Shown here in pieces: positions 20,928-42,586 of a stretch of DNA of 58,606 nucleotides (within the stretch, counting starts at the first letter, position 1; every line of letters begins with the position of its first letter). The position numbers were made by a program, and so were the translations under genes. The stretch lies in the IMG/VR virus record IMGVR_UViG_3300026528_000001, positions 1 through 58,606 of that record; one strand, 5' to 3'. Under the pieces are notes generated by a model. It searched no databases, had not been told where the DNA came from, and worked only from the letters and a program-made list of their open reading frames with translations. The stretch comes from a virus. Lineage: Duplodnaviria; Caudoviricetes.

Positions 20928-20944
20928 GAGAGGTTGGAGGCCCA

Positions 20945-21724: not shown

Positions 21725-21725
21725 T

Positions 21726-24998: not shown

Positions 24999-25222
24999 AA
25001 CTGAAGGAGAAGTTGCGGTCAAGCGTGGACTATGAGCGGGCGGCGGAGTTCTATGGAAAGAAAATCGTCCTTTTCAAAGCGGATGCCGTTATGGGTGCTG
25101 GGTCGGCTCAAGAACTCATGAATGCGGTTGTGGCCCGTGAGGCTCTGGTGATTCTTGCCGCTGTGGCACATGCCAAAGAAATGATGTCCGGGAAGGAAGA
25201 GGAAATCGAGTTGGAAGGATAA
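24995..25222 (+). CDS. Hypothetical protein
   Basis: GTGA overlap and GGAGG RBS. Confidence 0.55.
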   Translation: MKLKEKLRSSVDYERAAEFYGKKIVLFKADAVMGAGSAQELMNAVVAREALVILAAVAHAKEMMSGKEEEIELEG

Positions 25223-26582: not shown

Positions 26583-28493
26583 ATGAGCGAAAAGTCTGAC
26601 CTCACGCCTCCCGAGGCGGAACTCGAACGCAAGATCCTGGGTTGGTGTGCTTCCGCATTGGAAGAAGGCGAGCTATTCCTCAAGCAACAGAAGGGCTATA
26701 GCAAGATTTCTGAGACGATTGACGCTATTTCCGGTGACGATTTGCCCGTGAAATCTGTCTCTCTCTCGACCACCACCTGCAACCAATTAGGTCATATCGC
26801 ACTGAACCTAAGTGCTGCAATGACTGATGTTAAACCGTTCTGGGAATACAAGACCTTCAACAAAAAATACGAGCCCCAACAAGTGGCCCTAGGCAAACTC
26901 TCCCTCCACCTCTGGCTGCAGCGCCGCCTCAACATGCGCTATGCCGACACAGTGAGGTATTGGGTTGCGGCCGGAACCGGATTTATGCATCCCTACTACA
27001 ACCCGATTACCGGCGACCTTGACGCCTCCGCCGAGGATCCTCGGGACATCCTCCCCGTCCGTCCCAGTTCCTACGTTTCCATCCAGGATGCGGTTGGGGT
27101 CATCATGCGTCGGGAGCGGTCGGTCAACTACCTCAAGCAGAGGTATCCTGAGAAGGCGCACCTGATCAAGCCGGACCGTGACTCCTCTCTCGCCAAACTC
27201 TCTACCTCCACGCGTGCGGGTCGCCTCCTGCAATCGATCAACGCCTTCTCCCCCTTTGCCGAATATCTCTTTGGCAACAAGCCGTCCCAAGACATCAAGG
27301 GGATTCCCGTCTGTGACGAGTTCATCCTCTACGTCAAGTCCGACGAAATTCACCGGGGCACCACTCCCATCATCATGGGGGACCCCGAGACCAACTGGTC
27401 CTACACGGTCAACCCCGGGGAAAAAAAGTACCCTCGCGGCCGGCGTATCCCGTTCACCCGGACCACAGTCTTGGAAGACGGCCCCAACCAGTACTGGCAC
27501 GGCCTGTTTCCACTCTGCAAGCTGACACTCGACCCATGGCCCTGGACTTGGCTTGGCAAGGCTCCGCTCTGGGACCTCCTGCCTCTCCAGAAGGCTCTGG
27601 ACTGCAACATCCGCGTCGTGGACGATCACAACGAGAAGCTGGCCCGCCCCGACCTGATTGCCGACAAAAACGCGGTCTCCCGCGCCGCGCTGGATCGCAT
27701 AGACACGCGCAAGGGCGGGCTGAAGATGCAGCAGAATCCGCTCGGGGGCAAGGGCATCCAATTGCAGTACCCGAACCCACTGGACCCATCGATCCGGGAC
27801 TACATCACTTTCCTGATCGACCGGATGGACACCTACTCTGGGATCAAGGATGTGAGTTCCTTGATGCGCTTGGGGCAAATCCCGTCATCCGAGACTATCG
27901 AGAAGATTCTCGAAAGTATGACCCCGGCCATCCGTCTCCGCTCCCAGGCCGCCGAAGCCTTCATGACCGAGTTTGCGATGATGACGGCTTCGAATGTGAT
28001 GCAGTTCTATACTCTGCCCATGCGCCTCGCCATCCTCGGCCCATCCGGTCTCACTTTCGAAGACTTCGACTATGACCCGGGCACCATGGTTCCCGATTAC
28101 ATTCACCCGGAGGACCACAACAACTTCGGCGACGTGACTCCCGAAGCGCTCCTGCGTGGCCCTCGCCCTCGTTATGACCGTGCCCGTGAGTTCTTGCGCC
28201 AGTTCACCTACCACATTGCTCCAGGTTCTCTCCTGGCGGCCTCGGAGATCACCAGGAAGCTTTTGTACCTGCAATTGGCGCGTGCTGGGATGGTCGATGT
28301 TTGGACACTTTTAGAAATATTGGGAGTGCCAAATGTAGGCGAGCCGCCCGAAGGAACGGGGAATACCATCACCGCCCGCCTGATTGCGCAGCAGCAAATG
28401 GGCTTCGGGCCTAATGCGACGAGTGTGGGTAGAAAAGCTTCGGGACAGGAAATGCCTCAAATGACTCCCGGCGGGATTGTGGAGTCAAGATAA
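26583..28493 (+). CDS. Portal protein
   Basis: 636 aa after terminase; GTGF, YWHGLFP, DLLPLQKALD and SGIKDV pattern typical of P22-like portals. Confidence 0.85.
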   Translation: MSEKSDLTPPEAELERKILGWCASALEEGELFLKQQKGYSKISETIDAISGDDLPVKSVSLSTTTCNQLGHIALNLSAAMTDVKPFWEYKTFNKKYEPQQVALGKLSLHLWLQRRLNMRYADTVRYWVAAGTGFMHPYYNPITGDLDASAEDPRDILPVRPSSYVSIQDAVGVIMRRERSVNYLKQRYPEKAHLIKPDRDSSLAKLSTSTRAGRLLQSINAFSPFAEYLFGNKPSQDIKGIPVCDEFILYVKSDEIHRGTTPIIMGDPETNWSYTVNPGEKKYPRGRRIPFTRTTVLEDGPNQYWHGLFPLCKLTLDPWPWTWLGKAPLWDLLPLQKALDCNIRVVDDHNEKLARPDLIADKNAVSRAALDRIDTRKGGLKMQQNPLGGKGIQLQYPNPLDPSIRDYITFLIDRMDTYSGIKDVSSLMRLGQIPSSETIEKILESMTPAIRLRSQAAEAFMTEFAMMTASNVMQFYTLPMRLAILGPSGLTFEDFDYDPGTMVPDYIHPEDHNNFGDVTPEALLRGPRPRYDRAREFLRQFTYHIAPGSLLAASEITRKLLYLQLARAGMVDVWTLLEILGVPNVGEPPEGTGNTITARLIAQQQMGFGPNATSVGRKASGQEMPQMTPGGIVESR

Positions 28494-29150
28494 GCTATGG
28501 TCTTCCTTCTTTCGTCTGTCGTGTTTTTTCATCTCGGGCGGCTTCGTTGTGAGTGCTCTTTCAACAGACCATCCTGCCTTGAGTCTGTTGAAAAGCGTCG
28601 GCTGTCGGATTCCGGTGACTCTCGCCCATTCGGTCACACAGAGAGTCTTTCCTTGAAAGGTCAGATAGGTGCTGGAGCGGCGGTTCTGCGCCTGTTGCGT
28701 TTTTGTTGCCCAGACACAGTTCTCAGGCGAATAAGGTCCCTCATTATTCTTTCGTTCCAGGGTATGCTGCGACGTTGGGCGTGGTCCCATGTCTTTGTAG
28801 AAGGCTTCAAAGGAATTGAGCCACCTCTCGCAAACTGTGATTCCCCGTGCGCCGTAACGGAAAAACCCAGTGTCATTCGGTCTGTAGCAACGGCCTTTCA
28901 TCGCGTCCCAGATCTTAAACTCGCGCGAGCGTGTGAGTCCGTGTGTTGTTTTGGTTTCGCGTATCCAGTCCTTCAACAGGCAACCGCAAGACTTTGTGTG
29001 GCCGGTTGTGAGGTTCTGTGCCTGTACGATCACTTCCCTGCCGCACTCACATTGGCAGAGCCAGTAGGTTCTTTTGTTCTCAGTTCTATCTTCCGAAATT
29101 ACTGTGAGTCTGTTGAAGTGTCGGTCTGTAAGATTAATCTTACGCGACAT
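28485..29150 (-). CDS. HNH homing-endonuclease-like protein
   Basis: LT...F.RLTVI, WLCQCECG, SCGC, YGARGITVC.RW and TLERKNN.GPYSPENC.WAT. Confidence 0.9.
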   Translation of the reverse strand: MSRKINLTDRHFNRLTVISEDRTENKRTYWLCQCECGREVIVQAQNLTTGHTKSCGCLLKDWIRETKTTHGLTRSREFKIWDAMKGRCYRPNDTGFFRYGARGITVCERWLNSFEAFYKDMGPRPTSQHTLERKNNEGPYSPENCVWATKTQQAQNRRSSTYLTFQGKTLCVTEWARVTGIRQPTLFNRLKAGWSVERALTTKPPEMKKHDRRKKEDHSLS

Positions 29151-29728: not shown

Positions 29729-30826
29729 ATGAAATTCAAGCTTCTCTTCCTTCTCGTCCTCCTCACGCCCTTGCGGGCTTACTCACAGATGGGCATCGCC
29801 CGCGGCATCGCCCAGGTCCCTGCCCCCCCCACCACCCCATGCTCCCAAGGCGCGGTCCGCTTCGCCCGCTCCACCAACCTCGTCTACCTCTGCGGCCCGA
29901 ATAACACCTGGACCGCCGTGGGCGCCGCCGCGGGCACGGTCACCGGCACGGGTACGGCCAACCAGTTCCCGATCTTCACCGGGACGTCCACCATCGGGAA
30001 CTCCATCCTGACTCAGGGAACCAATCTCCTCGAGCAGAAGGCCACCACGAACCCGCAGACGTTCCGCGTCTACGAAACCACCGCGAATACCGGCAGCGTG
30101 GCTCAGATCCAGGCGCTCTCGACCGCAAACACAGTGCGCTTAGGAAGCAAAATCCTCAACGGCGCCGCCACCGCGCGCGCTACCGAGTGGGGCTACGAGA
30201 ACCAGGCGGGGACCTTTCTGGGCTGGTCCGTTTCAACCTCCGGGCACTTGAACGCTGCCGGCACCAATCTTGAGATCGGGAATACCAACGCTCCGAAGGC
30301 GCTCTACCTCGGCGGGACCAACGGGCAGGGTTTGTTGAACTTCAACGGGACGACCGCCGGAACACTTACAATTGCCGCCCCGGCGTCGATCACAAGTTAC
30401 ACGCTGACTTGGCCTGCCGCCGTGGGTGCCGCGAATACATTCGTCAAGACGGACGCGAGCGGGAATCTCAGCTACTCGAACACGTTCAATCAGCCCATTC
30501 TGCGCGGCATTGCCACCGCCACACTAACCGACGCCGCCACCATCGCCACGGACGCCTCTCTCGGCAATCACTTCCGGGTCACACTCGCAGGCAACCGGAC
30601 TCTAGGAAACCCGACCAACGCCACGGATGGGCAGAAAATCGTGTGGGAAGTGATTCAGGACTCGACAGGGAGCCGCACTCTTTCATTTGACACCCAGTTT
30701 GCCTTTGGTTCGGATGTCGCCAGTTGCATTGTTTCCACCACCGCGAGCAAGCGAGATTTCATTGGGGCCATATACAATTCGACAGCCACGAAGTGGTACG
30801 TCACAAGTTGTGTCAGGGGGTACTGA
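29729..30826 (+). CDS. Fibre-like protein with N-terminal signal peptide
   Basis: MKFKLLFLLVLLTPLRAYSQ; T/G/A-rich; GTVTGTGT; C-terminal TLAGNRTLGNPTN..IQD.TGSRTL fibre-type domain. Confidence 0.75.
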   Translation: MKFKLLFLLVLLTPLRAYSQMGIARGIAQVPAPPTTPCSQGAVRFARSTNLVYLCGPNNTWTAVGAAAGTVTGTGTANQFPIFTGTSTIGNSILTQGTNLLEQKATTNPQTFRVYETTANTGSVAQIQALSTANTVRLGSKILNGAATARATEWGYENQAGTFLGWSVSTSGHLNAAGTNLEIGNTNAPKALYLGGTNGQGLLNFNGTTAGTLTIAAPASITSYTLTWPAAVGAANTFVKTDASGNLSYSNTFNQPILRGIATATLTDAATIATDASLGNHFRVTLAGNRTLGNPTNATDGQKIVWEVIQDSTGSRTLSFDTQFAFGSDVASCIVSTTASKRDFIGAIYNSTATKWYVTSCVRGY

Positions 30827-31447
30827 ATGCTAAGACGCAAACTCCTCGCCACCGTCCTTTCCGCCATTCTCGCCTTCCCGCCGCTCTTCCTCTTCGGCTC
30901 AGTCACGAAGATCACTTACGGCACCTCGACCGCTATCACTTGCACACTGGCCTCTCTTGCCCAGGCAGCCGCTCGTGAGAGCACCGCCGTGGACAATACC
31001 TCGAACCTCTTCCTTGACGTTCTGGTCTACGTGGCGGTCACGTTGCAAAGCGGCTCGCCAGCCTCGGACAAGCAGATCGTCATCTATGCCTACGGCAGTG
31101 AGGATGGGACTAACTACACAGACAACGCCACCGGGACCGACGCGGCTGTCACGCTTCGCATTCCCGCCAATTTCCGCGTGATCGGCGTTATCGCCACGCC
31201 TGATTCCGGGTCTCTTCTTTACAAGAGTCACCCTATGAGTATTGCCGCGGCCTTCGGCGGCGTTATGCCACGCAAGTGGGGCATTGTTGTGGAAAACCGG
31301 ACCAATATCACGTTCAACGCAACCGAGAACACGCACACGAAAAGCTACACAGGCATCACGCTCACTACTGTCGAGACCCGTCCTCTCACGCTTCCGTTCA
31401 CGGATGGGGAGCCGCAATACCCAATCGAACTGCTGAGGGTCGCATGA
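30827..31447 (+). CDS. Virion-associated beta-rich protein with signal peptide
   Basis: MLRRKLLATVLSAILAFPPLFLFG followed by TLASLA...RESTAVDN. Confidence 0.65.
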   Translation: MLRRKLLATVLSAILAFPPLFLFGSVTKITYGTSTAITCTLASLAQAAARESTAVDNTSNLFLDVLVYVAVTLQSGSPASDKQIVIYAYGSEDGTNYTDNATGTDAAVTLRIPANFRVIGVIATPDSGSLLYKSHPMSIAAAFGGVMPRKWGIVVENRTNITFNATENTHTKSYTGITLTTVETRPLTLPFTDGEPQYPIELLRVA

Positions 31448-32370
31448 AGAAGGCTTTTGTTCTGATCTTCATCCTTCTTACTCTGACGGGATGCCCCAGG
31501 AAACTTCAGGCTCAGGCTCTGCGCAAGGGATGGGGAAACACAAAGCCGCCGATCGGGACGCAACTCCGAATCGGATACCCCTGGTCTGTGGGCTTGCGGA
31601 TTGCCGTGGTGTTCAACGGGCTCCAGATCAGCGTGGGTTCCGCCGGCGGAAATCAGGTGATCAATTACGGCACTTGGCCGGTGGGCCCGGTAACTCTCGG
31701 TTCCACCACATCGGCGGGCCCTCGATTAAGCGGGCCCGATCAGGTGACCCCGACTATTGCCAGGAAAGGCGGCGGCAGGCGTGTGGTTCTTTCCGATGTC
31801 TCCTACAGGGTGCAGTTTGACAATTCCAATATGATACCAACCGGCGGCGGGACTACCATCCTGATGGGGCACCAGAAGACGGACACGACAGCGCGCGCCG
31901 CGATTGGGTTCTCCACGGGCAGCACCGCCGCAGCCTACTGTAATGCGCTTATCCGCTACACTGGCCTTGGGACGCAGTTCTACTACGGAGGCGCCGTCGA
32001 GACGGCAAGTCTTGTCACTTGGGTGACGCCATCTGGGAATGCCGACGACGATGACATCTGGGCCTTCTCGACGGGTCCGCGCGGTATGGAGATCTGGAAA
32101 AACGGCGTCATCGGGGCAAGCAATAGCGCCGATCCAACAAGGTCAGCAAGCACAGATCCCTTCACGATCGGGAGTCCATCGGGTACCGATAGCGATCTTG
32201 TGATCCGGGATTTTTTCTATCTCTGGGCGCGTCAACTGACCACAACCGAGATCGCCTACTTGAGCAAATTCCCGTTTGACGTCTTCACGCCGCCTCCCAA
32301 CTGGCTGTCTGTCTTTGCGGCATCTGCGGCAGGTGGTAACTTCACGACCTTCCACGGGGGCGGGAAATGA
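31444..32370 (+). CDS. LamG/ConA-like protein with lipobox-type signal
   Basis: MKKAFVLIFILLTLTGC; EIWKNGV...FTIG...LWARQLTTTEI. Confidence 0.6.
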   Translation: MKKAFVLIFILLTLTGCPRKLQAQALRKGWGNTKPPIGTQLRIGYPWSVGLRIAVVFNGLQISVGSAGGNQVINYGTWPVGPVTLGSTTSAGPRLSGPDQVTPTIARKGGGRRVVLSDVSYRVQFDNSNMIPTGGGTTILMGHQKTDTTARAAIGFSTGSTAAAYCNALIRYTGLGTQFYYGGAVETASLVTWVTPSGNADDDDIWAFSTGPRGMEIWKNGVIGASNSADPTRSASTDPFTIGSPSGTDSDLVIRDFFYLWARQLTTTEIAYLSKFPFDVFTPPPNWLSVFAASAAGGNFTTFHGGGK

Positions 32371-32993
32371 AACGAATCACTCTCGCGATAATCCTTACGC
32401 TCATCCTCGCCTTGGACACCGTGGCGTCTACCAGTTGGTCGATCTGGCCCAAGACTTCCACCAAGGTGAAAGTCTCCGGCACGGACGTCTACTTCGACTT
32501 CCCGGCACCGCCCGACACGGCCAATTACCTGCTCAAGCCGTTCACGACTCCGATCTTCTCTTCAGTCACGGCTTCCTTCAGTCTGACCATGGACCCGGGC
32601 GCCTTCTTCACTTGGTGCGGCGCCCCGTGTGGCAACCCGTGTCCTGATCCGGCAAAGACCCGGCTTTATCTCGAACAACTGGATCCTCCCACATGCGATT
32701 GGAACGACCCCGAAACGCCGTGCCAATACCATCGATGGTGGAGCAATCCCGTCTCCCAGGAACTAGTAGCCGGAGATTTCATGCTGGCGGTGCCGCTCAC
32801 TCCCGACCAGTGGTCGAGCGTCTACGGACGGTTCGGGACTTATGACGCAACGGCGATGGCGGCGTTTTACACGGCGCTACAGAACCTCAATCGGATCGGC
32901 ATGTCCTTTGGCGGCGGATGCTTTTTCGGGCATGGCGTGAGCGTGGCTGGGGGCAACGCCCGCTTCACGCTCCACTCGTACACAGCACAGTGA
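32367..32993 (+). CDS. Secreted Cys-rich beta protein
   Basis: MKRITLAIILTLILALDTVAS signal; six Cys; RWWSNP, WSSVYG and FGGGCFFGHG. Confidence 0.7.
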   Translation: MKRITLAIILTLILALDTVASTSWSIWPKTSTKVKVSGTDVYFDFPAPPDTANYLLKPFTTPIFSSVTASFSLTMDPGAFFTWCGAPCGNPCPDPAKTRLYLEQLDPPTCDWNDPETPCQYHRWWSNPVSQELVAGDFMLAVPLTPDQWSSVYGRFGTYDATAMAAFYTALQNLNRIGMSFGGGCFFGHGVSVAGGNARFTLHSYTAQ

Positions 32994-33281
32994 GTGATGG
33001 AATGGACCATAGTACTTGTGGCGTTACTCTCCATGTTTGGCCTTGGCGTGCTGGTTGGCTGGCTCCTGCGCGGCGACACAAAGTCAGAAACGTCAGTGAC
33101 CCTGGCAGCGGACATCCGGGAGAAAAAGTCCCAACTGGCTCTTCTCACTCTCCGGGAACTTGTGGACGTGGTTACCGTGATCCCGTGGCAGGACAATCAC
33201 GAAGACGTGGAGCACAGCGTGGAGCGTGCCGCCAAGATAATCAACAGGCTCAGGCTGCTCCAGGAGGAGAATCAAAAGTGA
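32994..33281 (+). CDS. N-terminal TM plus helical protein
   Basis: WTIVLVALLSMFGLGVLVGWLL. Confidence 0.65.
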   Translation: MMEWTIVLVALLSMFGLGVLVGWLLRGDTKSETSVTLAADIREKKSQLALLTLRELVDVVTVIPWQDNHEDVEHSVERAAKIINRLRLLQEENQK

Positions 33282-33323
33282 ATTGTTTTCCTACACTCTT
33301 GTGTCGTATAAGGTAAGGCCAGG

Positions 33324-33521
33324 ATGGCTGAGTCAAAGTCGGACAAGATCACCGAGTCAGTCGGCAAGGAACTCAAAGATAATCCGCCCGCGATTCTGGC
33401 CTCCACGAAACGGAAGTTCGGCGCCGCGCGGGCCGAGAGTCAGCGCCGTGCTATCCTACTCTCCAAAGCTCGTCGCATGGGCGCTCGTATTCCGAAACCA
33501 AAAAGCATGAAGGAGTACTAA
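33324..33521 (+). CDS. Small basic head-module protein
   Basis: K/R-rich; AILLSKARRMGARIPK. Confidence 0.7.
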   Translation: MAESKSDKITESVGKELKDNPPAILASTKRKFGAARAESQRRAILLSKARRMGARIPKPKSMKEY

Positions 33522-33525
33522 AACC

Positions 33526-33688
33526 ATGGCAGGCAGTCTAGTCAAAGGTCCCGCAAACTCACCCGCCTCTCCGGGAGGACACAGGGGTTTGCGTGGCAAA
33601 GGCGGGCGCAGGTCTACAGGTAAAAAGGGATTCATGAACACTCCGGCGCAGGCCCCACAGAAGGGCTTCGGGTCCAAGAAAGGCTGAG
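33526..33688 (+). CDS. Small Gly/Lys-rich protein
   Basis: AAGGAG RBS; MAGSLVKGPANSP...KGFGSKKG; coordinates approximate to 1 nt. Confidence 0.55.
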
Positions 33689-33692
33689 TTAC

Positions 33693-34133
33693 ATGCCTGT
33701 TATCCACCCTCCCATGGACCGCTCCGGCGTGGACCTCGACAACCCGCCGCCTTCGCCGTCCGGGACACCCGTGAAGCCTCCCGGTCTCCTGCAGGGTCTG
33801 GCCGGCCGCGGACCCGCACCGTCATTCCAGGGACCGGGCATGGGACCCATGGGCAGTTCGCCTCAGACACTTGTCCTCTCCGAACTTATGAGTGTGGAGA
33901 ACAGTCTCAAGCGCATTGCCACGGTCCTTCCGGGAACCATCTCGGCAATCGGCCCAATGATCGACGCTCTCCGTCAAAGCATCCCGCGCGCCCTGGCGGA
34001 ATCGGGCGCTGGTCAGCAGTCCCCTGCCCTCGCAGCTCCGCCTGTGCCGGGCCAGGGCATGATCCCACCGCCTGTTCCCGCGGTCCCGCTCCCAGCGATG
34101 GGGCCGCAATTGGGGCAGGCATTCATGGGTTAA
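33693..34133 (+). CDS. Pro-rich head-module protein
   Basis: Located between portal and scaffold. Confidence 0.65.
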   Translation: MPVIHPPMDRSGVDLDNPPPSPSGTPVKPPGLLQGLAGRGPAPSFQGPGMGPMGSSPQTLVLSELMSVENSLKRIATVLPGTISAIGPMIDALRQSIPRALAESGAGQQSPALAAPPVPGQGMIPPPVPAVPLPAMGPQLGQAFMG

Positions 34134-34212
34134 AAACCAAATCTTCCAGGCGTTAGGCCACAAAGAGGCTTCGCCTTCTGAGAGGCAGACGCTAGGGAAA
34201 GAGGCAAAACCA

Positions 34213-35031
34213 ATGGCAACCGACACATCCAACCTCCAAGCCTACTGGCAGGAGCTCGCCAAGCGTGCGGGTCTTCCTGAGGACAAGGCCAAACTGGTTT
34301 CAGACGCTCTTGCCGACGAGACCGTGCAGAAGACCTTCCGCGAGGGCTTCCGTGCGATGCCGGACTACAGTCGTGATCTTGATTCTGTCCGGGACCGCAC
34401 GAGAAAGGAAACCGGCGAGGCGGTGAAGTCTTACTATGACAAGTGGTACGCCACAGAGGCGCTTCCGGTTCTGACTAGTAAGGCAAAGGAGGCGGCCGAT
34501 TACAAGGCGTCACTGGACCGCTACCGCCAAGCCTACGGTGACCTTGACGGCGACAATGGCAACCGGCAGCAGATCATTACCCCGGCTTCGGGCGATTTCC
34601 TCTCCAAGGCCGAATTCACGGAGTATATGCGCTCCCGGGAGCAGGCGGAGATCAATGTCCTCAAGGCCGGTCTTACCGCTGCTTCCCATCACATGCACGT
34701 CTTCGGGAAACCTCTCGACGTGGACGCGGTTCTCAAGACCGCGGCCGAGAAAGGTCTGACCTTCGACGAGGCCTACCGCCAGTATGTGGCGCCGGAACTC
34801 GAGAAGAAGACGCAGGAGACTCGTGCCGCTGAATTGAAGGCTGCCCGCGAAGAGGGCGCTCGTGACGCTCTCTCACGTCACAAGATCCCGGTGGACGCCG
34901 GTCCCAAGGAATTTCACCCCTTCTTCGACCGCGAGGTTTCAGACGGCAAGACGCCTCCACCCACCGAGCGCGACTCCATGGCCGCGTTCGTCGAAGGGTG
35001 GTACGAAGCGGCAGAGAAACAGCAGAAGTAA
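34213..35031 (+). CDS. Capsid scaffolding protein
   Basis: Helical, charged 272-aa protein directly upstream of the major capsid gene. Confidence 0.7.
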   Translation: MATDTSNLQAYWQELAKRAGLPEDKAKLVSDALADETVQKTFREGFRAMPDYSRDLDSVRDRTRKETGEAVKSYYDKWYATEALPVLTSKAKEAADYKASLDRYRQAYGDLDGDNGNRQQIITPASGDFLSKAEFTEYMRSREQAEINVLKAGLTAASHHMHVFGKPLDVDAVLKTAAEKGLTFDEAYRQYVAPELEKKTQETRAAELKAAREEGARDALSRHKIPVDAGPKEFHPFFDREVSDGKTPPPTERDSMAAFVEGWYEAAEKQQK

Positions 35032-35100
35032 GTTCCCCTCGCCAGAGCCAGTCTTCTTCTGTGACTGTCCCTTCCCGAGGGAGAATAGGAGAAGACACGA

Positions 35101-36198
35101 ATGGCTGAATTAGACCAGCTTACAGTCGCAACAAAACGCTACATCCGCAAGACCCCCGCGTTGGTGGACAACGTCTTCAACCGGGATCCCTTCCTGGCCT
35201 ACGCCAAGCTGAACGTCAGGGAAGATTTCACCGGGGGCCGGCTCATTGGGGAAGATTTTGTCTATGACGCGCTGATCGGCGGGTTCTATCAGAAAGGCAA
35301 GGAATTCGACGTCACCGAGAAGCAGGTTGAACAGCAGGCGCAGTTTCTCATGAAGTTCGCCGAGGCGGGCGTCACCCTCAGCAAGGAAGACGTGCAGGTT
35401 CTCAACAAGGGGCCCGAGGCGTCCTTCCGCCTGATCGAATCGCGCCTTACCAATGCCTACATGACCATCGGGGCGCATATGGCTATCGCCCTCTACCTCA
35501 ACGGTGTCCGTGCCGGATTCACCCCGTTCTACAACGGCATTGCCGAGGCCCTCAACGACAACTCCACGGTCAGTTGGGACAACAACACCTACTCCACCTA
35601 CGGCGGCATCACGCGTGGCGGGGCAGTGGGCAACGCACTAAACAGTGCCCCGACCAATGTCAATGGAACTATCGAGTACAACACGCTCGAGGAAACCTAC
35701 GGGGACGCGAGCTTCGGGGATGCGGAGTTTGAACCTAATCTGGGTGTGACCACGGTCAAGGGATATTCGTACATCAAAGAGAAGTTTCAGACTCAGCAAA
35801 GATTTAATGACACGCAAGACCCGCGCATCGGGTTCAATGGACTCAAGTTCAACAACGCCACTCTGATCAAGTCGCGCTACGTTCCCGGGTCAGACATCGT
35901 GACCGCCAATACCGACTCGAACAAGATCGCGGTAGCGATGCTCAAGGAAACCTCGGGCAACGTCATCACCGCCTACCCCCCGCTTGCGGTTTCCGCGAGC
36001 GAGACCTTGCTATGGCTGAATTGCAGGAAACCCTTCTTTTTCTTCTACCTGTCGAACGATCCTGAGTTCGGTCTCGGCTTCACGGGGTTCAAGCCCGGGC
36101 AAGGAAACACCAAAATTGTCGGCCAGGTCTTGGCTGCCTCAGCCATCACGTTTCCTGGTCCTCGTTATCACCGCCAGATCCACGGGTTCACCGGCTAG
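35101..36198 (+). CDS. Major capsid protein
   Basis: 365 aa, AGGAG RBS, LVDNVF.RDP, YGGITR, RIGFNGLKFNNA; follows the scaffold. Confidence 0.85.
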   Translation: MAELDQLTVATKRYIRKTPALVDNVFNRDPFLAYAKLNVREDFTGGRLIGEDFVYDALIGGFYQKGKEFDVTEKQVEQQAQFLMKFAEAGVTLSKEDVQVLNKGPEASFRLIESRLTNAYMTIGAHMAIALYLNGVRAGFTPFYNGIAEALNDNSTVSWDNNTYSTYGGITRGGAVGNALNSAPTNVNGTIEYNTLEETYGDASFGDAEFEPNLGVTTVKGYSYIKEKFQTQQRFNDTQDPRIGFNGLKFNNATLIKSRYVPGSDIVTANTDSNKIAVAMLKETSGNVITAYPPLAVSASETLLWLNCRKPFFFFYLSNDPEFGLGFTGFKPGQGNTKIVGQVLAASAITFPGPRYHRQIHGFTG

Positions 36199-36218
36199 GG
36201 AGCTGCGCCCCCTAGGGA

Positions 36219-36238
36219 CCCCGGCCAAAAGCCGGGGC
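36219..36238 (+). terminator. GC hairpin after the capsid gene (terminator or mRNA-stability element)
   Basis: CCCCGGC-CAAAA-GCCGGGG; no U-tract. Confidence 0.35.
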
Positions 36239-36257
36239 TAAAGAAAGGAGACATTAG

Positions 36258-36776
36258 ATGCCAAATACCAAGATCCAAACCGTCTACATCTCGACCGGCG
36301 ACCCCGACACGATGAACGCGAGTGAACTCTACAAACCAGGGGAACTGGGCGCGGTGTTCGACTTCGCCGGAAGCCGCCGGTATCAACTTGTTCAGCTCGA
36401 CTCCGGGGTCGTGGCCGCCAATACCACAGGTGTGGTGGCAGCCACGCAACTGGCTTACTGGAAGGACAAGTCCACGTATCTCGTGACCAATGACCTGCGC
36501 TTCTCGCAGCGCAACCTCGTGGCCGGGGTTTTCCGTGTGGCCCTCACCGCCGGCTATTACGGCTGCATTCTGAAGAAGGGCAAGTCCATCAACGTCAAGG
36601 CAGCCTCGGCCACCTATGCGGACGGGGATGTCATGATCGCCAATTCCGGCACCGCAGCCGACGCGGTCAACATCGCCGCCGGCACGGCGCCTACTTACCT
36701 TCCCATCGGCGTGGCTCGCGGAGCGAGGTCGGGCAGCGTGGTTCCCACGGACGTGGACATTCCTGACGTGATCTAA
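36258..36776 (+). CDS. Capsid decoration/cement protein (paralog 1)
   Basis: Directly after the MCP; TGDP.T.N, YQLVQLD, VTND and VAGV motifs. Confidence 0.65.
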   Translation: MPNTKIQTVYISTGDPDTMNASELYKPGELGAVFDFAGSRRYQLVQLDSGVVAANTTGVVAATQLAYWKDKSTYLVTNDLRFSQRNLVAGVFRVALTAGYYGCILKKGKSINVKAASATYADGDVMIANSGTAADAVNIAAGTAPTYLPIGVARGARSGSVVPTDVDIPDVI

Positions 36777-36789
36777 AGGGAGGAAGCCT

Positions 36790-37038
36790 ATGGCAGCAGT
36801 GACGGTCAACCGCCGGCGCGCCTTTGTCTCTGGCAACATGCGCGAGGTTGTGGCCAACGTCTCGGTCGCCGCGGACGGAGACACTTTCAATACCCAGCTC
36901 CGGCGCATCGAGGCCGTGGCCGCTACTCCATCACAGTCTTCAGCCACCCAGGTAGGCTGTACTATCTCAGGGGGTACGGTCACTTTCAAAGTGGGTGGCG
37001 CTGAGGCTAACGTTCTGGTCCGGGTTGTGGGACAATAA
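36790..37038 (+). CDS. Small virion protein
   Basis: GGAGG RBS; beta-rich 82 aa. Confidence 0.65.
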   Translation: MAAVTVNRRRAFVSGNMREVVANVSVAADGDTFNTQLRRIEAVAATPSQSSATQVGCTISGGTVTFKVGGAEANVLVRVVGQ

Positions 37039-37198
37039 GCATCGCCTGTTTCCAAGCCTGGACCAGGACGAAGCAGGTAAGGGGACGGGCAGGGTAAGAG
37101 GGGGGAACCCAGGGGGTGGATGCTCCTTCGACACTCTGGCTTCTTGCTCTGTCCTCCCGTCCCTTTAGTATGGGAATTTGGACCTCGCGGAGACGCAT

Positions 37199-38131
37199 GT
37201 GGCCCTGGATACATATCCTGACATCTGGAACCGTGTGCTCCTACGGGTGCCGTCCGCCTCTTCGCTCTTAGCCCAAGATTGGGTCGGGAACGCTTTCCGT
37301 CAAGTGGCTGAGCGTCGGCCCTGGTCCTGGCGGATAAAGCGGCAGCAATTTCTCTTTCCCGCGGTCTACAAGACGGGAACGGTTTCAGTCACATTCGGAT
37401 CAACCACGGTCACAGGATCGGGAACCGCTTTCACTTCCGGGATGGCTGGGCGCCAGTTTCGTGTGGGTCTTCAGGTGCCAATCTACACAATTGTCGCGGT
37501 TCCCGATGCCACAACTCTGACTCTTGACCAAGCTTGGGGCGGGGATGACGCTTCTGGAGTCGGCTTCGAGATTTACTCCGCCTACCAGACGGTGCCGGCC
37601 GATTTCAGCTACTTCCTGACCGTCTGGGATCCCCGTTTCAACTGGCAGCTTCACCGCAACACCACGCAGGAGGAATTGAACTGGTACGACGCGCAGCGGG
37701 CAAACCAGGCGTCCTCTTCCTACTGTGTCGTCAGTTGCGACTACGATCAGACCACCACACCGCCGCGGCCTCGTTACGAGCTATGGCCGCACATGAAGGC
37801 GCAGTATTGCTATCCGTACCTTTACATCGCCCGCCCGGCAGATCTCGCGGATTCTGGCGCGCAACTGCCTTTCTATTTGTCAGGTGATGTACTGCTGGAG
37901 ATGGCTCTGGCCGAGGCGGCCCGCTGGCCTGGCCCATCGCGGGACAAGCCCAGCCAGTACTATTCGCTGGCTCTGGCCATGATGCATGAGCGGCGGGCGG
38001 AGAGAAGGATCGTTGAGATGGAGCGCAATGACGACGAGACGTTTGAGGCGGATGTGAAGTACGCCATGAACCTGCCGTTTTCGCCGTGGCCCTTTGACTC
38101 GAACTGGATCCAGAGCCATGCGCTGGGATAG
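37199..38131 (+). CDS. Head-to-tail adaptor-like protein 1
   Basis: RRPWSW, inserted GTVSVT.GSTTVTGSGTAF domain, YELWP; position after capsid genes. Confidence 0.65.
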   Translation: MALDTYPDIWNRVLLRVPSASSLLAQDWVGNAFRQVAERRPWSWRIKRQQFLFPAVYKTGTVSVTFGSTTVTGSGTAFTSGMAGRQFRVGLQVPIYTIVAVPDATTLTLDQAWGGDDASGVGFEIYSAYQTVPADFSYFLTVWDPRFNWQLHRNTTQEELNWYDAQRANQASSSYCVVSCDYDQTTTPPRPRYELWPHMKAQYCYPYLYIARPADLADSGAQLPFYLSGDVLLEMALAEAARWPGPSRDKPSQYYSLALAMMHERRAERRIVEMERNDDETFEADVKYAMNLPFSPWPFDSNWIQSHALG

Positions 38132-38246
38132 GCGAGGAACTTGGACTGATGCCATGGTCTGTCGTGGTCGTGGCATCTAAGGCCGCTCCGGTTTTTCTTT
38201 GTCGGATTTCCGGGGCGGCCCACGCGCTTTTCAAAGGAGGGTTTGA

Positions 38247-38486
38247 ATGTCAGTTTTACTTCGTTGCAAGATGAAGGTCCAGTCTCTGGAAGCCGCCAAG
38301 AACGCAGACGGTTCCGTCCACGATGAGCGTATCAAGCTTACTGCTGTCTTGGGCCCGGAGAATGAACCCTGGTCACTGTTCACGCCGTCCGGTGAACTCA
38401 ACATCACTATCACCAATTCGGCGGTGTTCGGGAAACTAAAACAGGACGCCGAGTACTACATCGACATCGTGCCCGTGGAGGGATGA
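38247..38486 (+). CDS. Small conserved-type beta protein
   Basis: AAGGAGG RBS; EN..WS.FTPSGELNITITN...EYYIDI. Confidence 0.75.
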   Translation: MSVLLRCKMKVQSLEAAKNADGSVHDERIKLTAVLGPENEPWSLFTPSGELNITITNSAVFGKLKQDAEYYIDIVPVEG

Positions 38487-38489
38487 GAA

Positions 38490-38690
38490 ATGCCAAGCTT
38501 TGACAAGAGTCTGATTCACACCCCGGTGGAGCCCTGCGCCACGCCGCCCAAGAATAACAAGGGGTCAGGTGGCGGGACTTATGACGGGGAGGAAGGGTAT
38601 AAAAAACGTACGCCTTCCCCGGATGCCGCCCCCGAGAAGATCTACGATGATGTGGGTCCGCTTGGGAAGCCTCCCGAAAGATTTCCTTGA
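38490..38690 (+). CDS. Small Pro/Gly/Lys-rich protein
   Basis: GGAGG RBS. Confidence 0.6.
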   Translation: MPSFDKSLIHTPVEPCATPPKNNKGSGGGTYDGEEGYKKRTPSPDAAPEKIYDDVGPLGKPPERFP

Positions 38691-38705
38691 TTCCTGGAGT
38701 GCCGC

Positions 38706-40100
38706 ATGATGAAACGTCCCGCCCTGGTCCTGACGCTAGTCTTTCTCCTTTGCTGCCAGCGACCGCTTTTCGGCAGGGAACGCCTCCAAGGATGGTGTCA
38801 GGACGGGGCGGGCGTGGTCACGGTTTCTGGGACCACCGCGACCATCACCCCGGGGACCGCCAACCGGGCGATGGTCAGCTACCCCTCCTGCACGGTGACG
38901 GTTTACCTCACCGGCACCACTACTCTCGCCAGCCTGTACTCCGACAATTCCGGCACGGTAAAATCCAATCCCTTCACCGCCGCCAACACGGGCCAATTCT
39001 TCTTTTACGCTGATTCAGGCCGCTATGATGTCCGTCTCTCTGGCGGGGGTATCTCGACTCCCTTCACTCTCTCTGACTTCTCCCTCTGGGACACGGGCAC
39101 ACTCGGGGCTTCTGGCACAGTCCTCCGTAGCAACGGCTCGAATCCCGTGTGGGCTACGCTCGGTTCTTCCGACCTTCCCACGCTCCAGGCATTGAGTGGC
39201 ACCCTCACGGCCGCCAAGGGCGGGACGGGCCAGAGTTCATTCGTGAAAGGGACCTTGCTGGTCGCTTCTGCCGGGACGACTCTCGGCAAGCTGGCGGTAG
39301 GGACAAATACCCAGGTTCTTACTGCCGACAGCACTCAAACCCTGGGAGTGAAGTGGGCCGCACCCGCAGTCACGGCGCACAATATTCTTTCGGCTTCACA
39401 TGGAGACAGTCTGGCAGGAACGGTAGTGCGCGGCGACATCATCGTTGGGAACTCGACTCCCGCGTGGTCCCGGCTTGCCATCGGGGCAAACAACCGAGTG
39501 CTCAGAAGTAACGGCACGGATGCATCCTGGGCGCAGGTGGCTCTGGCTACCGATGTGAGCGGGGTTTTGCCTGTGGCAAACGGCGGGACCGGGACGGCCT
39601 ACTTCACCGTGGCTGGTCCCACCACAGCTCGTACTCTGACTTTTCCTGACGCTAACGCGACGGTGCTCACGACTAATGCCGCAGTGACCGCCGCACAGGG
39701 AGGCACAGGGCAATCTTCATTCACTAAGGGTGATGTGACGGTAGCATCGGGCTCCACGACGCTCGTGAAGCTCCCGGTGGGTTCGGACAACCAGTTGCTC
39801 ACAGCGGATAGCTCTCAGACCAGTGGCCTTAAGTACGGGTGGAAGCATCTGACGGCGACCGCCACGTTAGACTTTCCAAGCACCAATGCTCAATTGTCGG
39901 CGGATCTCACCATCGCGGTGACAGGGGCCGCCGTGGGAAATCCAGTCATACTCGGCACACCCGCAGCTCCAGATGCAAACAGTGCGTACACCGCCTTCAT
40001 AAGCGCGAGCGGAGTTTGCACGGTACGCTTTCATAACTACAGTTCAGGGGCGATCAACCCGGCTTCTGGAAGTTTCACGGTTATTGTTGTTGTTCCTTAG
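38706..40100 (+). CDS. Tail fibre with signal-peptide-like N-terminus and internal repeats
   Basis: MMKRPALVLTLVFLLCC; NPFTA..GQFFFYADSGRYDV anchor-type domain; two GGTGQSSF.KG...KL.VG...LTADS repeats. Confidence 0.8.
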   Translation: MMKRPALVLTLVFLLCCQRPLFGRERLQGWCQDGAGVVTVSGTTATITPGTANRAMVSYPSCTVTVYLTGTTTLASLYSDNSGTVKSNPFTAANTGQFFFYADSGRYDVRLSGGGISTPFTLSDFSLWDTGTLGASGTVLRSNGSNPVWATLGSSDLPTLQALSGTLTAAKGGTGQSSFVKGTLLVASAGTTLGKLAVGTNTQVLTADSTQTLGVKWAAPAVTAHNILSASHGDSLAGTVVRGDIIVGNSTPAWSRLAIGANNRVLRSNGTDASWAQVALATDVSGVLPVANGGTGTAYFTVAGPTTARTLTFPDANATVLTTNAAVTAAQGGTGQSSFTKGDVTVASGSTTLVKLPVGSDNQLLTADSSQTSGLKYGWKHLTATATLDFPSTNAQLSADLTIAVTGAAVGNPVILGTPAAPDANSAYTAFISASGVCTVRFHNYSSGAINPASGSFTVIVVVP

Positions 40101-40722
40101 AGCGGTGATGCAGAACTCGAATTGGGACAGAAAGCGTTTTCTCTATCGGCCAACCGAGTTTTTGGATGCGGGCAGACAGTGTGCTGCCACTAGTGCCGAT
40201 TTCTTCCGCCCATTGGGAAACGCACATGGTTTTATTACCGTAGGTCCACTTTACGTTGGATCTCTGGTTTCGCGCTTGTTCCTTTCTGGTTGCCCAGATG
40301 CAATTTTCTTTGGAGTATGGGCCATGGTTGTCCTTGCGCTCAATTGTGTGTTTTGGGCTCGGACGTGGTCCTATGTCACGGAGAAAGTTTTCAAAGGATT
40401 CGTACCATTCGTAAGACATGATGATCCCGCGTCCGCCATAGTCCTTAAAGGCACGATTGTTGCTGTTGTAGCACCGGCCGCGTATCGATGCCCAAATGTT
40501 GTATTCGACAGTCTTTCTCAGGCCGTGGGTTTTGCGCAGACCTGTTTTCAAATGGCAGCCGCAAGAGCCAGAGTTGCCGCTTCTAAGATTGCTTGTCGGG
40601 ACTGTGGTAACTGTGCCGCAGTCACAGCGGCATTCCCAATAGCGTATCCACTTTCTGCTTTCCTTGTAACGGATCACTGTAAGTTTTCTGAAGCGCTGTC
40701 CGGTGAGATCGAGAACTGGCAT
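40081..40722 (-). CDS. HNH homing-endonuclease-like protein (paralog of 28485-29150)
   Basis: DLTGQRF, WECRCDCG, SCGC, YGGRGI and TIERKDNHGPYSKENC.WAT. Confidence 0.9.
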   Translation of the reverse strand: MPVLDLTGQRFRKLTVIRYKESRKWIRYWECRCDCGTVTTVPTSNLRSGNSGSCGCHLKTGLRKTHGLRKTVEYNIWASIRGRCYNSNNRAFKDYGGRGIIMSYEWYESFENFLRDIGPRPSPKHTIERKDNHGPYSKENCIWATRKEQARNQRSNVKWTYGNKTMCVSQWAEEIGTSGSTLSARIQKLGWPIEKTLSVPIRVLHHRSKEQQQ

Positions 40723-40805
40723 GGCTTCTCTCCAGGTGAGAAGTTGTGTCGGCAAGGTCTGCCCGGAGGTTACGAGCCTCTTGGGCAGACCGCTTGACTA
40801 TATCA
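40723..40805 (-). promoter_or_regulatory. Extended -10 box plus two-hairpin leader of HNH gene 2
   Basis: TGATATAGT; GGTCTGCCC..GGGCAGACC hairpin; CGACACA; CTTCTC-ACCT-GGAGAGAAG hairpin covering the SD. Confidence 0.65.
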
Positions 40806-40819
40806 TTTGGTATTTGGTT

Positions 40820-41197
40820 TTGGCGACGATTCTTACTGACTCAGGAAAGACGATTTTGGTTAATTGCCTTGCTGATATTGGTTCGATTCCTGTGTATCTT
40901 GCGGGTGGGACAGGTGCCGGATCCGCTGCGGTCACGGATACGACTCTGTTTTCGGAGACCGGAGCACGGGTCCAGTGTCAGGTTTCGATAGTCACCACAA
41001 CAACCGCGAATGACACATGTAGATTTGTCGGAACTATTACCAACTATGGGGCCATCGAGACAATTACGAATGTCGGCCTTTTTGACGCGGCCTCCTCGGG
41101 CAACCTCCTGTGCAAGGCCGATGGTGTGGGCCAGGCCCTGGACACCAACGAGGGCCTGGAGATAATCTGGGACATCAAGATCACGGGGCAATGCTAG
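40820..41197 (+). CDS. Tail-associated protein (fibre N-terminal-like)
   Basis: TTG start; ILTDSGK, GTG..AAVTDTTLFSE and ITNVGLFDAASSGNL. Confidence 0.7.
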   Translation: MATILTDSGKTILVNCLADIGSIPVYLAGGTGAGSAAVTDTTLFSETGARVQCQVSIVTTTTANDTCRFVGTITNYGAIETITNVGLFDAASSGNLLCKADGVGQALDTNEGLEIIWDIKITGQC

Positions 41198-41689
41198 ATG
41201 GCGAGCGGCGCGCTTTACCCAAGCAGCATAGTCTACGTCACAAGCGGCCTCGTGGGCCCTGCCGTCCACGTCGGCGCGGCTTCCACCGGCCTCAGGCGCA
41301 CCCGCGGCATTCAAGTGGTGGCTGCGGCCGACCTCAGTGCGAACGCTGATGTGGAAATGACCTTCGACATGCCACCCGCTCTTCCCTCGGGCACGGGCAA
41401 ACTTATTCTCTTAGGCCGTACGGTGGGCACGGGCAACGCGATAATCCTGGTCAGTTGGGTTTCGGTGGCCATCGGGGAGGACCCATCCGCCGCCACGTTA
41501 CTCAGCGAAGGGAACCAGACTCTCACGGTTGTCGGCGGGGACTCGGACAAGTTCCTGCGGCTCAAGACGACTCTGGACGCAGACACTCTGACTGCGGATG
41601 AGATTGTCTGCATGCGGCTACGGTTCGTCCAGGCGAGTTACACGCTGAACCAGCCTCTCACCGTGGCTCCAAGCATGAGGTGGGAATAA
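41198..41689 (+). CDS. Putative virion beta-sandwich protein
   Basis: Coupled ORF in the structural module. Confidence 0.6.
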   Translation: MASGALYPSSIVYVTSGLVGPAVHVGAASTGLRRTRGIQVVAAADLSANADVEMTFDMPPALPSGTGKLILLGRTVGTGNAIILVSWVSVAIGEDPSAATLLSEGNQTLTVVGGDSDKFLRLKTTLDADTLTADEIVCMRLRFVQASYTLNQPLTVAPSMRWE

Positions 41690-41697
41690 GGGGAGCT

Positions 41698-42582
41698 ATG
41701 TCTCGTCTCTTTGTTGCAGCCAACTCTGACAAAATCGTCCTTCCCAATACCGCCTGGGCTTCCCGTTTTTCCTTCTCCGCCTGGATCTACCCCGTCAGTC
41801 AACCGGCGGTCAGCTCTGGCCTCACAATTCTTTCAAACGCCACCGGCAGCACCAACCTCACTGGTTACCGCTTCGCTTATGAGAACGACGGGTCGATCTT
41901 TCCCAAGCTGACGGCCTACTGGACGCTCGCGTTTGGATTGGCGACCAAGTACACCCACAGCGTCCTCCTGACTCTCAACGAGTGGCATCATCTGGTCTGG
42001 ACTTATACCGGTGCTGCGGCGGTCTGCTACGTGGATGGGGCCGCGAATGTTCCGGTTCTCGAGCTCAACAACCCCGGGGTGAATGTGGCGGCCTTTGGTG
42101 CCAACCGCATCGGCTGCTGGTTCGGCATCAGTAATGTGGATCTCTGGTTCTGGGACGGGCGCATCGGGGAGGTGGCATTCCTGGGAGACAACTGCAATCC
42201 CGTCCTGTCCGCGGGCGAGGTTTTGAATCTCTACCGCGGCGCCTACCTGTGCGAATTGCGCCCCACGGGGCCGACGAACCATTACGAAGGGATCTGGATG
42301 CTGGAGGGGCTTTTTGACCCGGAGCCGGACTGGTCCGGGCACAGGCGGCACTCCATCTCCATCAGTGGGACCAGCAGGGCGGCCAATCCTCCCACCGCCT
42401 GGTATCCGCCACTCATTCCCAGTTACCCTCTCGACATCTCCGGCGGCAGCGGCTCCCTCGGACTTTCCATGTCCGTTCTGGTGCAGCCTGCCGCCTACCA
42501 GACCTTTGTCCCGGCGCCCGGTCCGTGCGTGGGCGAGACCGGGGATGCCTCGCGCCCGCCTGACCCTGAGACTGGAGCCTGA
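41698..42582 (+). CDS. LamG/concanavalin-A-like lectin domain protein
   Basis: FSFSAWIYP, LNEWHHLVWTY, YVDG, WDGRIGEV and LSAGEV motifs. Confidence 0.85.
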   Translation: MSRLFVAANSDKIVLPNTAWASRFSFSAWIYPVSQPAVSSGLTILSNATGSTNLTGYRFAYENDGSIFPKLTAYWTLAFGLATKYTHSVLLTLNEWHHLVWTYTGAAAVCYVDGAANVPVLELNNPGVNVAAFGANRIGCWFGISNVDLWFWDGRIGEVAFLGDNCNPVLSAGEVLNLYRGAYLCELRPTGPTNHYEGIWMLEGLFDPEPDWSGHRRHSISISGTSRAANPPTAWYPPLIPSYPLDISGGSGSLGLSMSVLVQPAAYQTFVPAPGPCVGETGDASRPPDPETGA

Positions 42583-42586
42583 TGAA

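Follow-up and report, generated by a model that had tools for sequence, protein, structure and literature searches.

Predicted export signals on fibre and lectin-like genes in the structural module of a podophage of the Tunturi clade

The stretch of DNA analysed here (the window) comprises 58,606 bases and constitutes a whole virus record, which is classed in IMG/VR under direct terminal repeats with an estimated completeness of 100%. An exact 127-bp repeat is common to both genome ends, and the window is the complete genome of a soil podophage. Its structural module contains five plus-strand genes, here called A to E, each of which starts with an N-terminus of the export-signal type. Gene A (29729..30826; 365 aa) carries a predicted Sec signal at residues 1–19 (nt 29729–29785), gene B (30827..31447; 206 aa) at residues 1–24 (nt 30827–30898), gene D (32367..32993; 208 aa) at residues 1–21 (nt 32367–32429) and gene E (38706..40100; 464 aa) at residues 1–23 (nt 38706–38774), while gene C (31444..32370; 308 aa) carries a lipoprotein signal with the lipobox L14-T-G-C17 (signal nt 31444–31491). 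All five had been picked out in a first-pass annotation of this DNA, which proposed that they encode exported fibres or adhesins, and all five were recovered here. In each of them a phage-type or lectin-type domain stands behind the predicted export signal.

Genes A–D are consecutive, as first noticed, and are translationally coupled with one another: the ATG of B abuts the stop codon of A, and the ATG codons of C (31444) and D (32367) overlap the stop codons of B and C, respectively, by 4 bp. The start codons of B, D and E are the first to follow an in-frame stop, which lies at codon −1 in B, −10 in D and −6 in E. The ATG of A (29729) falls one base after the stop of the upstream open reading frame (ORF; 29727); in-frame upstream starts exist (GTG at −33 and ATG at −17), either of which would overlap the upstream ORF. 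A cytoplasmic isoform of A starting at Met21 was rejected, since no convincing ribosome-binding site lies upstream of it. E has no Met at its predicted mature start.

Signals were scored with a home-made n/h/c heuristic, not a trained predictor, which demanded a net positive charge before the core, an uncharged core of nine residues with a mean Kyte–Doolittle hydropathy of at least 2.2 and a small −3/−1 site. All five proteins are positive in this test. In A, B, D and E a net charge of +2 or +3 stands ahead of the hydrophobic core, and the best nine-residue window starts at residues 5–7 with a mean hydropathy of 2.5–3.3. The cleavage sites assigned by eye are AYS↓Q20 in A, LFG↓S25 in B, VAS↓T22 in D and LFG↓R24 in E, with a −3/−1 site that is clear in A and D and weaker in B and E. 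The homologues mostly show A-x-A, or A/G at −1, zero to six residues ahead of the conserved mature start, and they differ in the sequence of the signal and not in its position, which places the signals beyond chance. The lipobox of C, likewise noticed in the first pass, is canonical; its Pfam match to LPAM_1 (E = 0.0064, 17.3 bits) lies under the 20-bit cut-off. When a looser version of the signal test was applied to 86 crude whole-genome ORF calls, only B, D, E and a doubtful 99-aa ORF at 53089 were flagged, A and C being missed because the longest ORF, with its upstream extension, was used. Tat export, for which the motif S/T-R-R-x-F-L-K with a longer and less hydrophobic h-region was taken as the criterion, is not favoured, since A, C, D and E carry KF, KK or KR and not RR; an RRK is present in B, in a signal that is nevertheless short and of strong hydrophobicity, and RR occurs in some homologues.

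Gene E consists of the signal, an N-terminal domain (residues 24–127; nt 38775–39086) with two cysteines (C31 and C62), fibre repeats of the GGTG type and a C-terminal domain. The N-terminal domain is the element that had been described as anchor-like from its NPFTA..FYA..GRYD pattern, and it weakly resembles the head-binding domains of tailspikes. E matches phrog_23837, 'virion structural protein' (E = 1.4e-5), and its N-domain matches the Oceanospirillum phage GJ44 tail fiber protein (E = 1e-2). Alignment A3 brings together 37 of these domains (the window and 36 related loci), and its profile matches the 9vyg 'Tail spike protein' chains (E = 0.0021–0.0023) and 7eeq_A, 'Tailspike head-binding domain' (E = 0.0034); the E N-domain and these PDB matches have in common the motif Y.tGTtt..vY....NP..Ad..G. 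A figure legend (PMC13730344) lists 7EEQ as a tail entry of cyanophage Pam1. One metagenome-assembled genome (MAG) holds a relative; of 301 genomes sampled from its phylum the A3 profile matched three, and by this count the E N-domain is not a common cellular family.

The close homologues of E (72–78% identity) are all signal-bearing, as are, by the heuristic, 69 of its best 120 matches. A metagenome scan with E returned mainly matches to the GGTG repeats and did not recover the 72–78% identical relatives; the alignment of E-type N-domains led to 59 IMG/VR loci (handles beginning with L below). Alignment A3 contains 29 rows with a signal and eight without. Seven of the eight signal-less rows begin, with Met, at the column of the window's R24, where the mature protein is predicted to start; the remaining row, L214, has a GTG start and a ten-residue lead. 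The C31/C62 pair is present in 19 of the 29 signal-bearing rows and in none of the eight signal-less ones (Fisher p = 0.0011, uncorrected for relatedness). The tree of E-type domains is poorly resolved (one of 34 branches starred), and on it the signal state changes at least six times. L173 and L179, which have neither signal nor cysteines, fall into a group with two signal-bearing loci, L168 and L178; by identity of the major head protein (MCP; 61–63%), L173 and L179 rank with the nearest relatives.

Many further proteins have GGTG fibre repeats like those of E and carry signals, which are followed by other N-domains (P0134, P0156, P0168, P0179, P0191, P0238 and P0239; P0178, P0187, P0195 and P0205; and others). 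One group has the N-domain '..APNPGH.F..V.GG..QGD..YGS' and occurs on contigs of up to 327–352 kb, and another has the N-domain '..AQPF.TQIQ.AI.QLTTGV.PF'. Exported fibre-like proteins thus seem to be widespread beyond the clade.

Gene A has a comparable layout, with a signal, a hairpin flanked by cysteines (C38 and C55) and a fibre shaft, and it ends in a C-terminal domain of the tail-fibre kind (residues ~255–365). Residues 255–364 match phrog_19976 (E = 4.1e-11), and residues 277–365 match, by tblastn, the C-termini of annotated minor tail and tail fibre proteins in ten records of isolated phages, Kromp, S2B and Epa19 among them, the hosts of which include Streptomyces, Caulobacter and Pseudomonas. 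The tail-fibre tip of A and the fibre repeats of E bear out the reading of these bodies as fibres. Homologues P0002 and P0052 align over 97–100% of the length of A, P0003 over 64% and P0004 over 30%; in alignment A1 all four are signal-bearing, with a −3/−1 site just ahead of a conserved Gln, and C38 and C55 are invariant in all five signal-bearing A-type proteins. L008, a marine phage fibre without a signal, has the same hairpin and collar motif, no cysteines and an ordinary fibre N-terminus where A has its signal. Most of the best 120 matches to A share just its C-terminal tip, and 15 of the 120 are signal-like. IMG/VR scans returned no relative with A alone and five partial matches with alignment A1. 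Hundreds of fibre-like proteins that differ in the rest of their length end in a domain 60–76% identical to the C-terminal domain of A (~100 aa; nt 30490–30826); their carriers include phages of both Gram-positive and Gram-negative hosts and large contigs with the label Saccharimonadales or Patescibacteria. This conservation is unusually high for a receptor-binding tip, and the domain may serve in chaperoning or trimerisation, or may bind glycans generically.

The products of B, C and D are beta-sandwich or lectin-like. B has, after its signal, a beta-sandwich domain of ~160 aa of a type typical of viral proteins: its Atlas model (residues 23–182) aligns to viral (Uroviricota) clusters of 154–170 aa with TM scores of 0.68–0.73 by query and 0.87–0.89 by hit. 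The length of these viral proteins would leave scant room for a signal. A tblastn search of B and D against isolated phages gave no match. The body of C may be LamG/concanavalin-like. The LamG-like fold noticed earlier among the five bodies holds for C through a homologue and not through C itself: C gave no LamG match in Pfam at E up to 0.1, while P0392, which is 46% identical to C, carries PF13385 (Laminin_G_3) behind a signal of the signal peptidase I (SPase I) type. The only other relative of C, P0393 (30% identity), is signal-less and its first residue corresponds to the mature residue of C; an IMG/VR scan with C alone gave one partial relative. D has a jelly-roll body with six cysteines that faintly resembles carbohydrate-binding modules. 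At E up to 0.001 it is matched by 1257 cluster representatives; 103 of the best 150 of these are signal-like, many with lipoboxes, and among those of normal length (190–260) in the best 150 the count is 98 of 127. The Atlas model of D (pTM 0.82) reaches TM scores of 0.52–0.59 against CBM_4_9, CIA30 and PEP-CTERM clusters, all below the threshold for naming a family, and its nearest structural clusters are part viral and part bacterial, Acidobacteriota included.

The structural region in which these genes lie keeps its order across relatives. The portal (26583–28493; phrog_156), the probable scaffold (34213–35031) and the MCP (35101–36198; phrog_9953, E = 5e-18) are followed in the window by p36258, p37178, p43177 and p44573, and many of the 59 loci, on contigs of 57–74 kb, show the same order. 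The slot of the E-type gene is, in most relatives, either between p37178 and p43177 or just after p43177, and it is held both by signal-bearing forms (L168–L172 and L174, for instance) and by signal-less ones (L173, L179, L181 and L189). By position, signal-bearing and signal-less E-type genes are orthologues within the tail module. In L175, L193, L203 and L216 the E-type gene sits in the portal-to-MCP slot, where the window has A–D, and this slot is for that reason a legitimate fibre locus. L168 mirrors the window: its portal-to-scaffold interval holds an A-like signal-bearing fibre (679 aa, with the Cys hairpin) and two signal-like proteins, and its signal-bearing E-type gene is, within the 20-kb locus examined, the sole gene between p37178 and p43177. 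The conserved tail protein p37178 (37178..38131, plus strand; 317 aa) has no signal and matches tail and tail-fibre PHROGs. Its residues ~57–130 resemble the N-terminal attachment region of tail fibres, its profile (A4) matches the N-terminus of the F2-pyocin side fiber (E = 1.3e-7) as well as Distal tail protein gp20 (E = 2.4e-6), and it is conserved directly upstream of E-type genes in relatives; p37178 is a candidate docking partner for E.

Signal presence co-varies across the module, a point that the first-pass annotation had proposed to check, and does so in a nearly all-or-none manner. Where the E-type gene bears a signal (29 loci) 72 of 386 ORFs are signal-like, compared with two of 122 where it is signal-less (eight loci; Mann–Whitney p = 8e-5, and 0.003 when one per locus is subtracted); the count covers plus-strand ORFs of at least 100 aa under the heuristic test, is uncontrolled for relatedness and misses A and C of the window.

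By MCP, the nearest isolated phages are the Acidobacteriota podoviruses Tunturi 1 and 2 (27% identity, E = 3e-17), and the window phage belongs to a clade that includes these two cultured phages. Tunturi 1 has in common with the window the order portal, HNH, scaffold, MCP and tail protein. Its gp12, gp13, gp14 ('tail spike protein'), gp16 and gp17 ('virion structural protein'; product names as deposited) all start with signals, and gp12 (1190 aa) has an E-type N-domain with both cysteines (49% identity over 75 residues, E = 1e-3). The signal test flagged six of the 26 plus-strand coding sequences (CDS) of at least 100 aa in Tunturi 1, namely the five tail proteins and an acetyltransferase, the last probably a false positive. 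The Tunturi phages are distant relatives and, unlike the window, lack an A–D-type cassette between portal and scaffold; in Tunturi 1 the signal block gp12–gp17 follows the tail protein gp11 and is followed within ~1 kb by the endolysin cassette gp20–gp23 (record positions 10371–25122). A text search for the term 'signal peptide' in the main text of the Tunturi paper (PMC11924767) gave no occurrence. In the siphovirus Tunturi 4, which infects the same host genus, one of 23 structural-region CDS was flagged and no tail gene has a signal by eye. A host-driven trait was rejected as a general rule on this account, and the trait is consequently one of the podophage lineage and not of all Acidobacteriota phages.

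A search of species-representative genomes with the alignment of E N-domains returned six loci, all on phage-sized contigs binned into MAGs or assemblies: two of Ca. Sulfotelmatobacter and one each of Bryobacterales, Gemmatimonadota, Planctomycetaceae and an uncultured single-cell assembly. On the strength of these bins the host is likely to be a diderm of the Acidobacteriota type. No integrase was found among the ORFs scanned, which were not all the ORFs of the genome, and a temperate or moron reading was set aside on that finding.

The claim that A–E are exported has thus held up well, given the conserved signals in homologues, the signal-less orthologues that start at the mature residue, the Cys pair restricted to signal-bearing forms and the mostly signal-bearing family of D; export to the periplasm is very probable. 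What becomes of the proteins thereafter is the part of the claim that sequence does not separate. Tailed-phage morphogenesis is taken to be entirely cytoplasmic. In the mechanism that we favour, the appendage proteins of the late operon would be made with a signal, of the cleavable Sec type in A, B, D and E and of the lipoprotein type in C, translocated unfolded and folded in the periplasm, where E and A would probably form a disulfide. DNA-filled tailed particles would meanwhile be built in the cytoplasm without these appendages. Once holin and endolysin, for which the window encodes a Peptidase_M15_4 protein (547–948, plus strand; PF13539, E = 3.3e-9), breach the inner membrane and the wall, the compartments would merge, and E, and probably A too, would dock on the tail through a domain of the N-terminal head-binding-like type. 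The lectin-like B, C and D would act with the fibres as accessory glycan binders or adaptors.

That the exported proteins arm the virion at lysis in this way is our tentative preference, which we would put at a little under an even chance, docking being the most conditional of the steps. It is favoured because the fibres retain an N-domain of the tail-docking type, because they share the tail-fibre slot interchangeably with signal-less orthologues, because a signal-bearing fibre is the sole candidate in the stretch examined of some relatives and because the appendage genes switch together, as if their products met in one compartment. Holin lesions and endolysin join the cytoplasm to the periplasm while the outer membrane still holds, and in T4 fibres attach to fibre-less particles in vitro, so that docking at lysis is physically plausible. 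For the clade that includes Tunturi 1 and 2 a broader version is possible, if slightly more doubtful: the whole receptor-binding apparatus, spikes and lectin-like accessories as well as fibres, would be Sec-exported, disulfide-stabilised, perhaps pre-assembled and loaded at lysis onto particles built without fibres in the cytoplasm, a two-compartment assembly pathway, with close relatives toggling to and from the cytoplasmic route.

Several observations weigh against arming of the virion by A–E, and they are best considered together with the other accounts of the signals. The window also encodes, on the plus strand after E, four fibre- or lectin-like genes without signals (40703–41197, 41198–41689, 41680–42582 and 42314–43180), of which the first is GP4 gp80 fibre-I-like (PF23140, E = 1.9e-6) and the third is a LamG gene (PF13385, E = 1.2e-12). 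They are candidates for conventional cytoplasmic appendages, and if they are the true virion fibres they could free A–E for another role. No homologue of B, C or D was detected in the relatives' loci, except for B in L190 and L223, and the A–D cassette for this reason looks accessory and variable. The PDB similarity of the E N-domain is weak (E = 0.002–0.003 over ~45 residues). The cleavage region of E (CCQRPLFG↓R) is the least canonical of the set, and ten of the 29 signal-bearing E-type rows lack the Cys pair. An independent-pairs test of signal against Cys pair offered one usable pair, leaving the association without phylogenetic control, and by overall Cys content the five mature proteins do not exceed 36 other proteins of the genome (p = 0.68). 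The main rival, unlikely in our estimate, is that the proteins are exported and never reach the virion, acting instead on the envelope of the infected cell or on debris, possibly by masking or occupying glycan receptors (in superinfection exclusion or to protect progeny from debris), by remodelling or cutting exopolysaccharide (EPS) or capsule from the periplasm or as surface adhesins. The signals and their conservation would fit such a role equally, as would the lipoprotein nature of C, a D family that is large, mostly signal-bearing or lipoprotein and found in bacteria and viruses alike, a hypervariable A–D cassette that is an insertion relative to the portal-to-MCP region of Tunturi 1, and the presence of separate signal-less fibre candidates; small receptor-blocking lipoproteins are a precedent from phages, and there are cellular precedents in excerpts on the Bdellovibrio MAT fibres (PMC10769870) and Pantoea WceF (PMC7949094). 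A decoy, however, should share a receptor-binding domain, and the signal-bearing paralogue of a signal-less fibre that the receptor-masking idea of the first-pass annotation predicts was not found in the genome: at the BLAST level no paralogy was detected between A–E and the window's signal-less fibre candidates. Further points against an envelope role are the positional orthology of E-type genes with and without signals in a conserved tail module, the signal-bearing gene standing alone between p37178 and p43177 in the 20-kb locus of L168, and the annotated tail spike of Tunturi 1, which itself bears a signal. The near all-or-none pattern of the module, moreover, better fits proteins that meet in one compartment than single masking factors. 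Between the two fates first offered, joining the virion or remaining on the cell as decoys or adhesins, the slot orthology of E, its weak head-binding likeness and the nearly all-or-none signals lean to the virion in the case of E, though sequence alone cannot separate them.

The fates of the five proteins might also be split, with E and its orthologues the true tail fibre on the virion and A–D a separately acquired module of exported glycan-binding proteins off it. E does sit in a conserved tail slot with an N-domain of tail-docking-type similarity, the slot of A–D is variable and has a homing endonuclease gene at its side, and B, C and D are without fibre features, the D family being largely cellular or exported. 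We nevertheless find a split quite unlikely, given that an E-type gene occupies the portal-to-MCP slot in four relatives (L175, L193, L203 and L216), that L168 has an A-like signal-bearing fibre in this slot, that A possesses a genuine tail-fibre tip domain and that A–D are translationally coupled. Very unlikely, finally, is the possibility that the hydrophobic N-termini do not export at all but are uncleaved or non-functional segments, such as helices for trimerisation or for membrane tethering on the cytoplasmic side, on fibres assembled in the cytoplasm. The atypical cleavage region of E, the signal-bearing rows without the Cys pair and a Cys content that is not raised overall would agree with it. 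Against it stand the full n/h/c architecture with small −3/−1 residues zero to six positions before the mature start in dozens of divergent homologues, the canonical lipobox of C and the confinement of the Cys pair to signal-bearing forms; the signal-less orthologues are simply without the segment, so it is dispensable for the fold.

Some known systems share features with A–E and differ from them in others. The podophage tailspikes (7EEQ and 9VYG) have, like E, an N-domain of ~100 aa with the shared motif, followed by a fibre shaft and a C-terminal domain. They start directly with the docking domain and are cytoplasmic, whereas E adds a Sec signal before the domain and a Cys pair; the signal-less E orthologues of related phages resemble the conventional tailspike form. 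The MAT fibres of Bdellovibrio bacteriovorus, as described in passages of PMC10769870, consist of a signal, a beta-rich conserved N-domain of ~130 aa, a trimeric phage-like fibre and a variable C-terminal tip, and the likeness is one of architecture, in the succession of signal, N-domain, fibre and tip; these exported fibres are related to phage tail fibres. They differ in being chromosomal in a predatory bacterium and in standing on its own surface to bind prey, with no phage tail module. WceF of Pantoea stewartii is, in excerpts of its description, an exported tailspike-like trimer with an N-domain structurally homologous to the P22 tailspike head-binding domain, with exopolysaccharide of the periplasm or biofilm as its proposed target (PMC7949094). 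It differs in its Tat signal and its location in a chromosomal EPS gene cluster; the signals of the window are short, very hydrophobic and of the Sec type.

Small exported proteins, receptor-blocking lipoproteins and outer-membrane morons, are known from phages: T5 Llp, Cor and lambda Lom and Bor are encoded beside tail or receptor-binding genes, and T5 Llp protects progeny from adsorbing to debris. These proteins are not known to have fibre or lectin domains, whereas A–E are 206–464 aa long with bodies of virion or lectin type. In the literature consulted, which was covered by titles, abstracts and some passages, no description of Sec signals on tailed-phage fibres or spikes was found; passages of a 2026 preprint on huge phages concern signal-bearing sortase substrates, not fibres. 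What could be new here is the presence of export signals on phage tail fibres and lectins, both of which are known kinds of protein, and, if arming at lysis is confirmed, a new assembly route.

If arming at lysis is true, it would add a new assembly step to the phage cycle; the alternative outcome would be a widespread class of lectins and fibres, made by phages for the periplasm or the cell surface, through which the host envelope is reshaped in the course of infection. The matter bears on host-range prediction from tail-fibre genes in soil viromes, on the recombinant expression of fibres, for which oxidising conditions may be needed, and on how annotation pipelines handle signal-bearing 'tail' proteins. 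The question is directly testable because a cultured pair, Tunturi 1 on Tunturiibacter, shows the feature, and close relatives with and without the signal provide a natural comparison.

Further genes of the window lie around or apart from the signal-bearing genes. The ORF that abuts D (32994..33281, plus strand; 95 aa) combines a transmembrane segment at the N-terminus with a C-terminal half that is helical and charged; whether it belongs to the system is uncertain. Its sole Pfam match is a weak one to LapA_dom (E = 0.052). The transmembrane segment has no basic n-region, and by the positive-inside rule the tail would be cytoplasmic, so that the protein does not resemble an i-spanin. Just upstream of the scaffold region, a 65-aa basic protein (33324–33521) is 52–68% identical in seven related loci, a conservation above that of most structural proteins of the clade. 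Two HNH homing-endonuclease genes (28485–29150 and 40081–40755, both on the minus strand), which are 43% identical to each other (E = 1e-65), lie antisense within the structural region, one directly before the A–D cassette and the other directly after E; in Tunturi 1 an HNH gene is likewise positioned after the portal gene. The 172-aa protein after the MCP (36258–36776) and the C-terminal part of p42314 (42314–43180; 288 aa) have a domain in common (30% identity over 122 residues, E = 2e-7). The genome also encodes four glycosyltransferases (GT2, GT2_5, GT1/GT4 with a 'GT4-conflict' Pfam match, and another GT2) as well as a SAM methyltransferase and a radical SAM protein; this set, at 2180–2932(−), 3513–4298(−), 4972–6342(−), 17801–18547(+), 18666–19232(+) and 22573–23667(+), could serve to modify host surface glycans or to glycosylate phage proteins. 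Tunturi 4 has a glycosyltransferase in its terminase-to-portal interval. Finally, 53430–56582 encodes a protein of 1050 aa with a RadC-like JAB domain at residues 220–316 (Pfam E = 1e-8).

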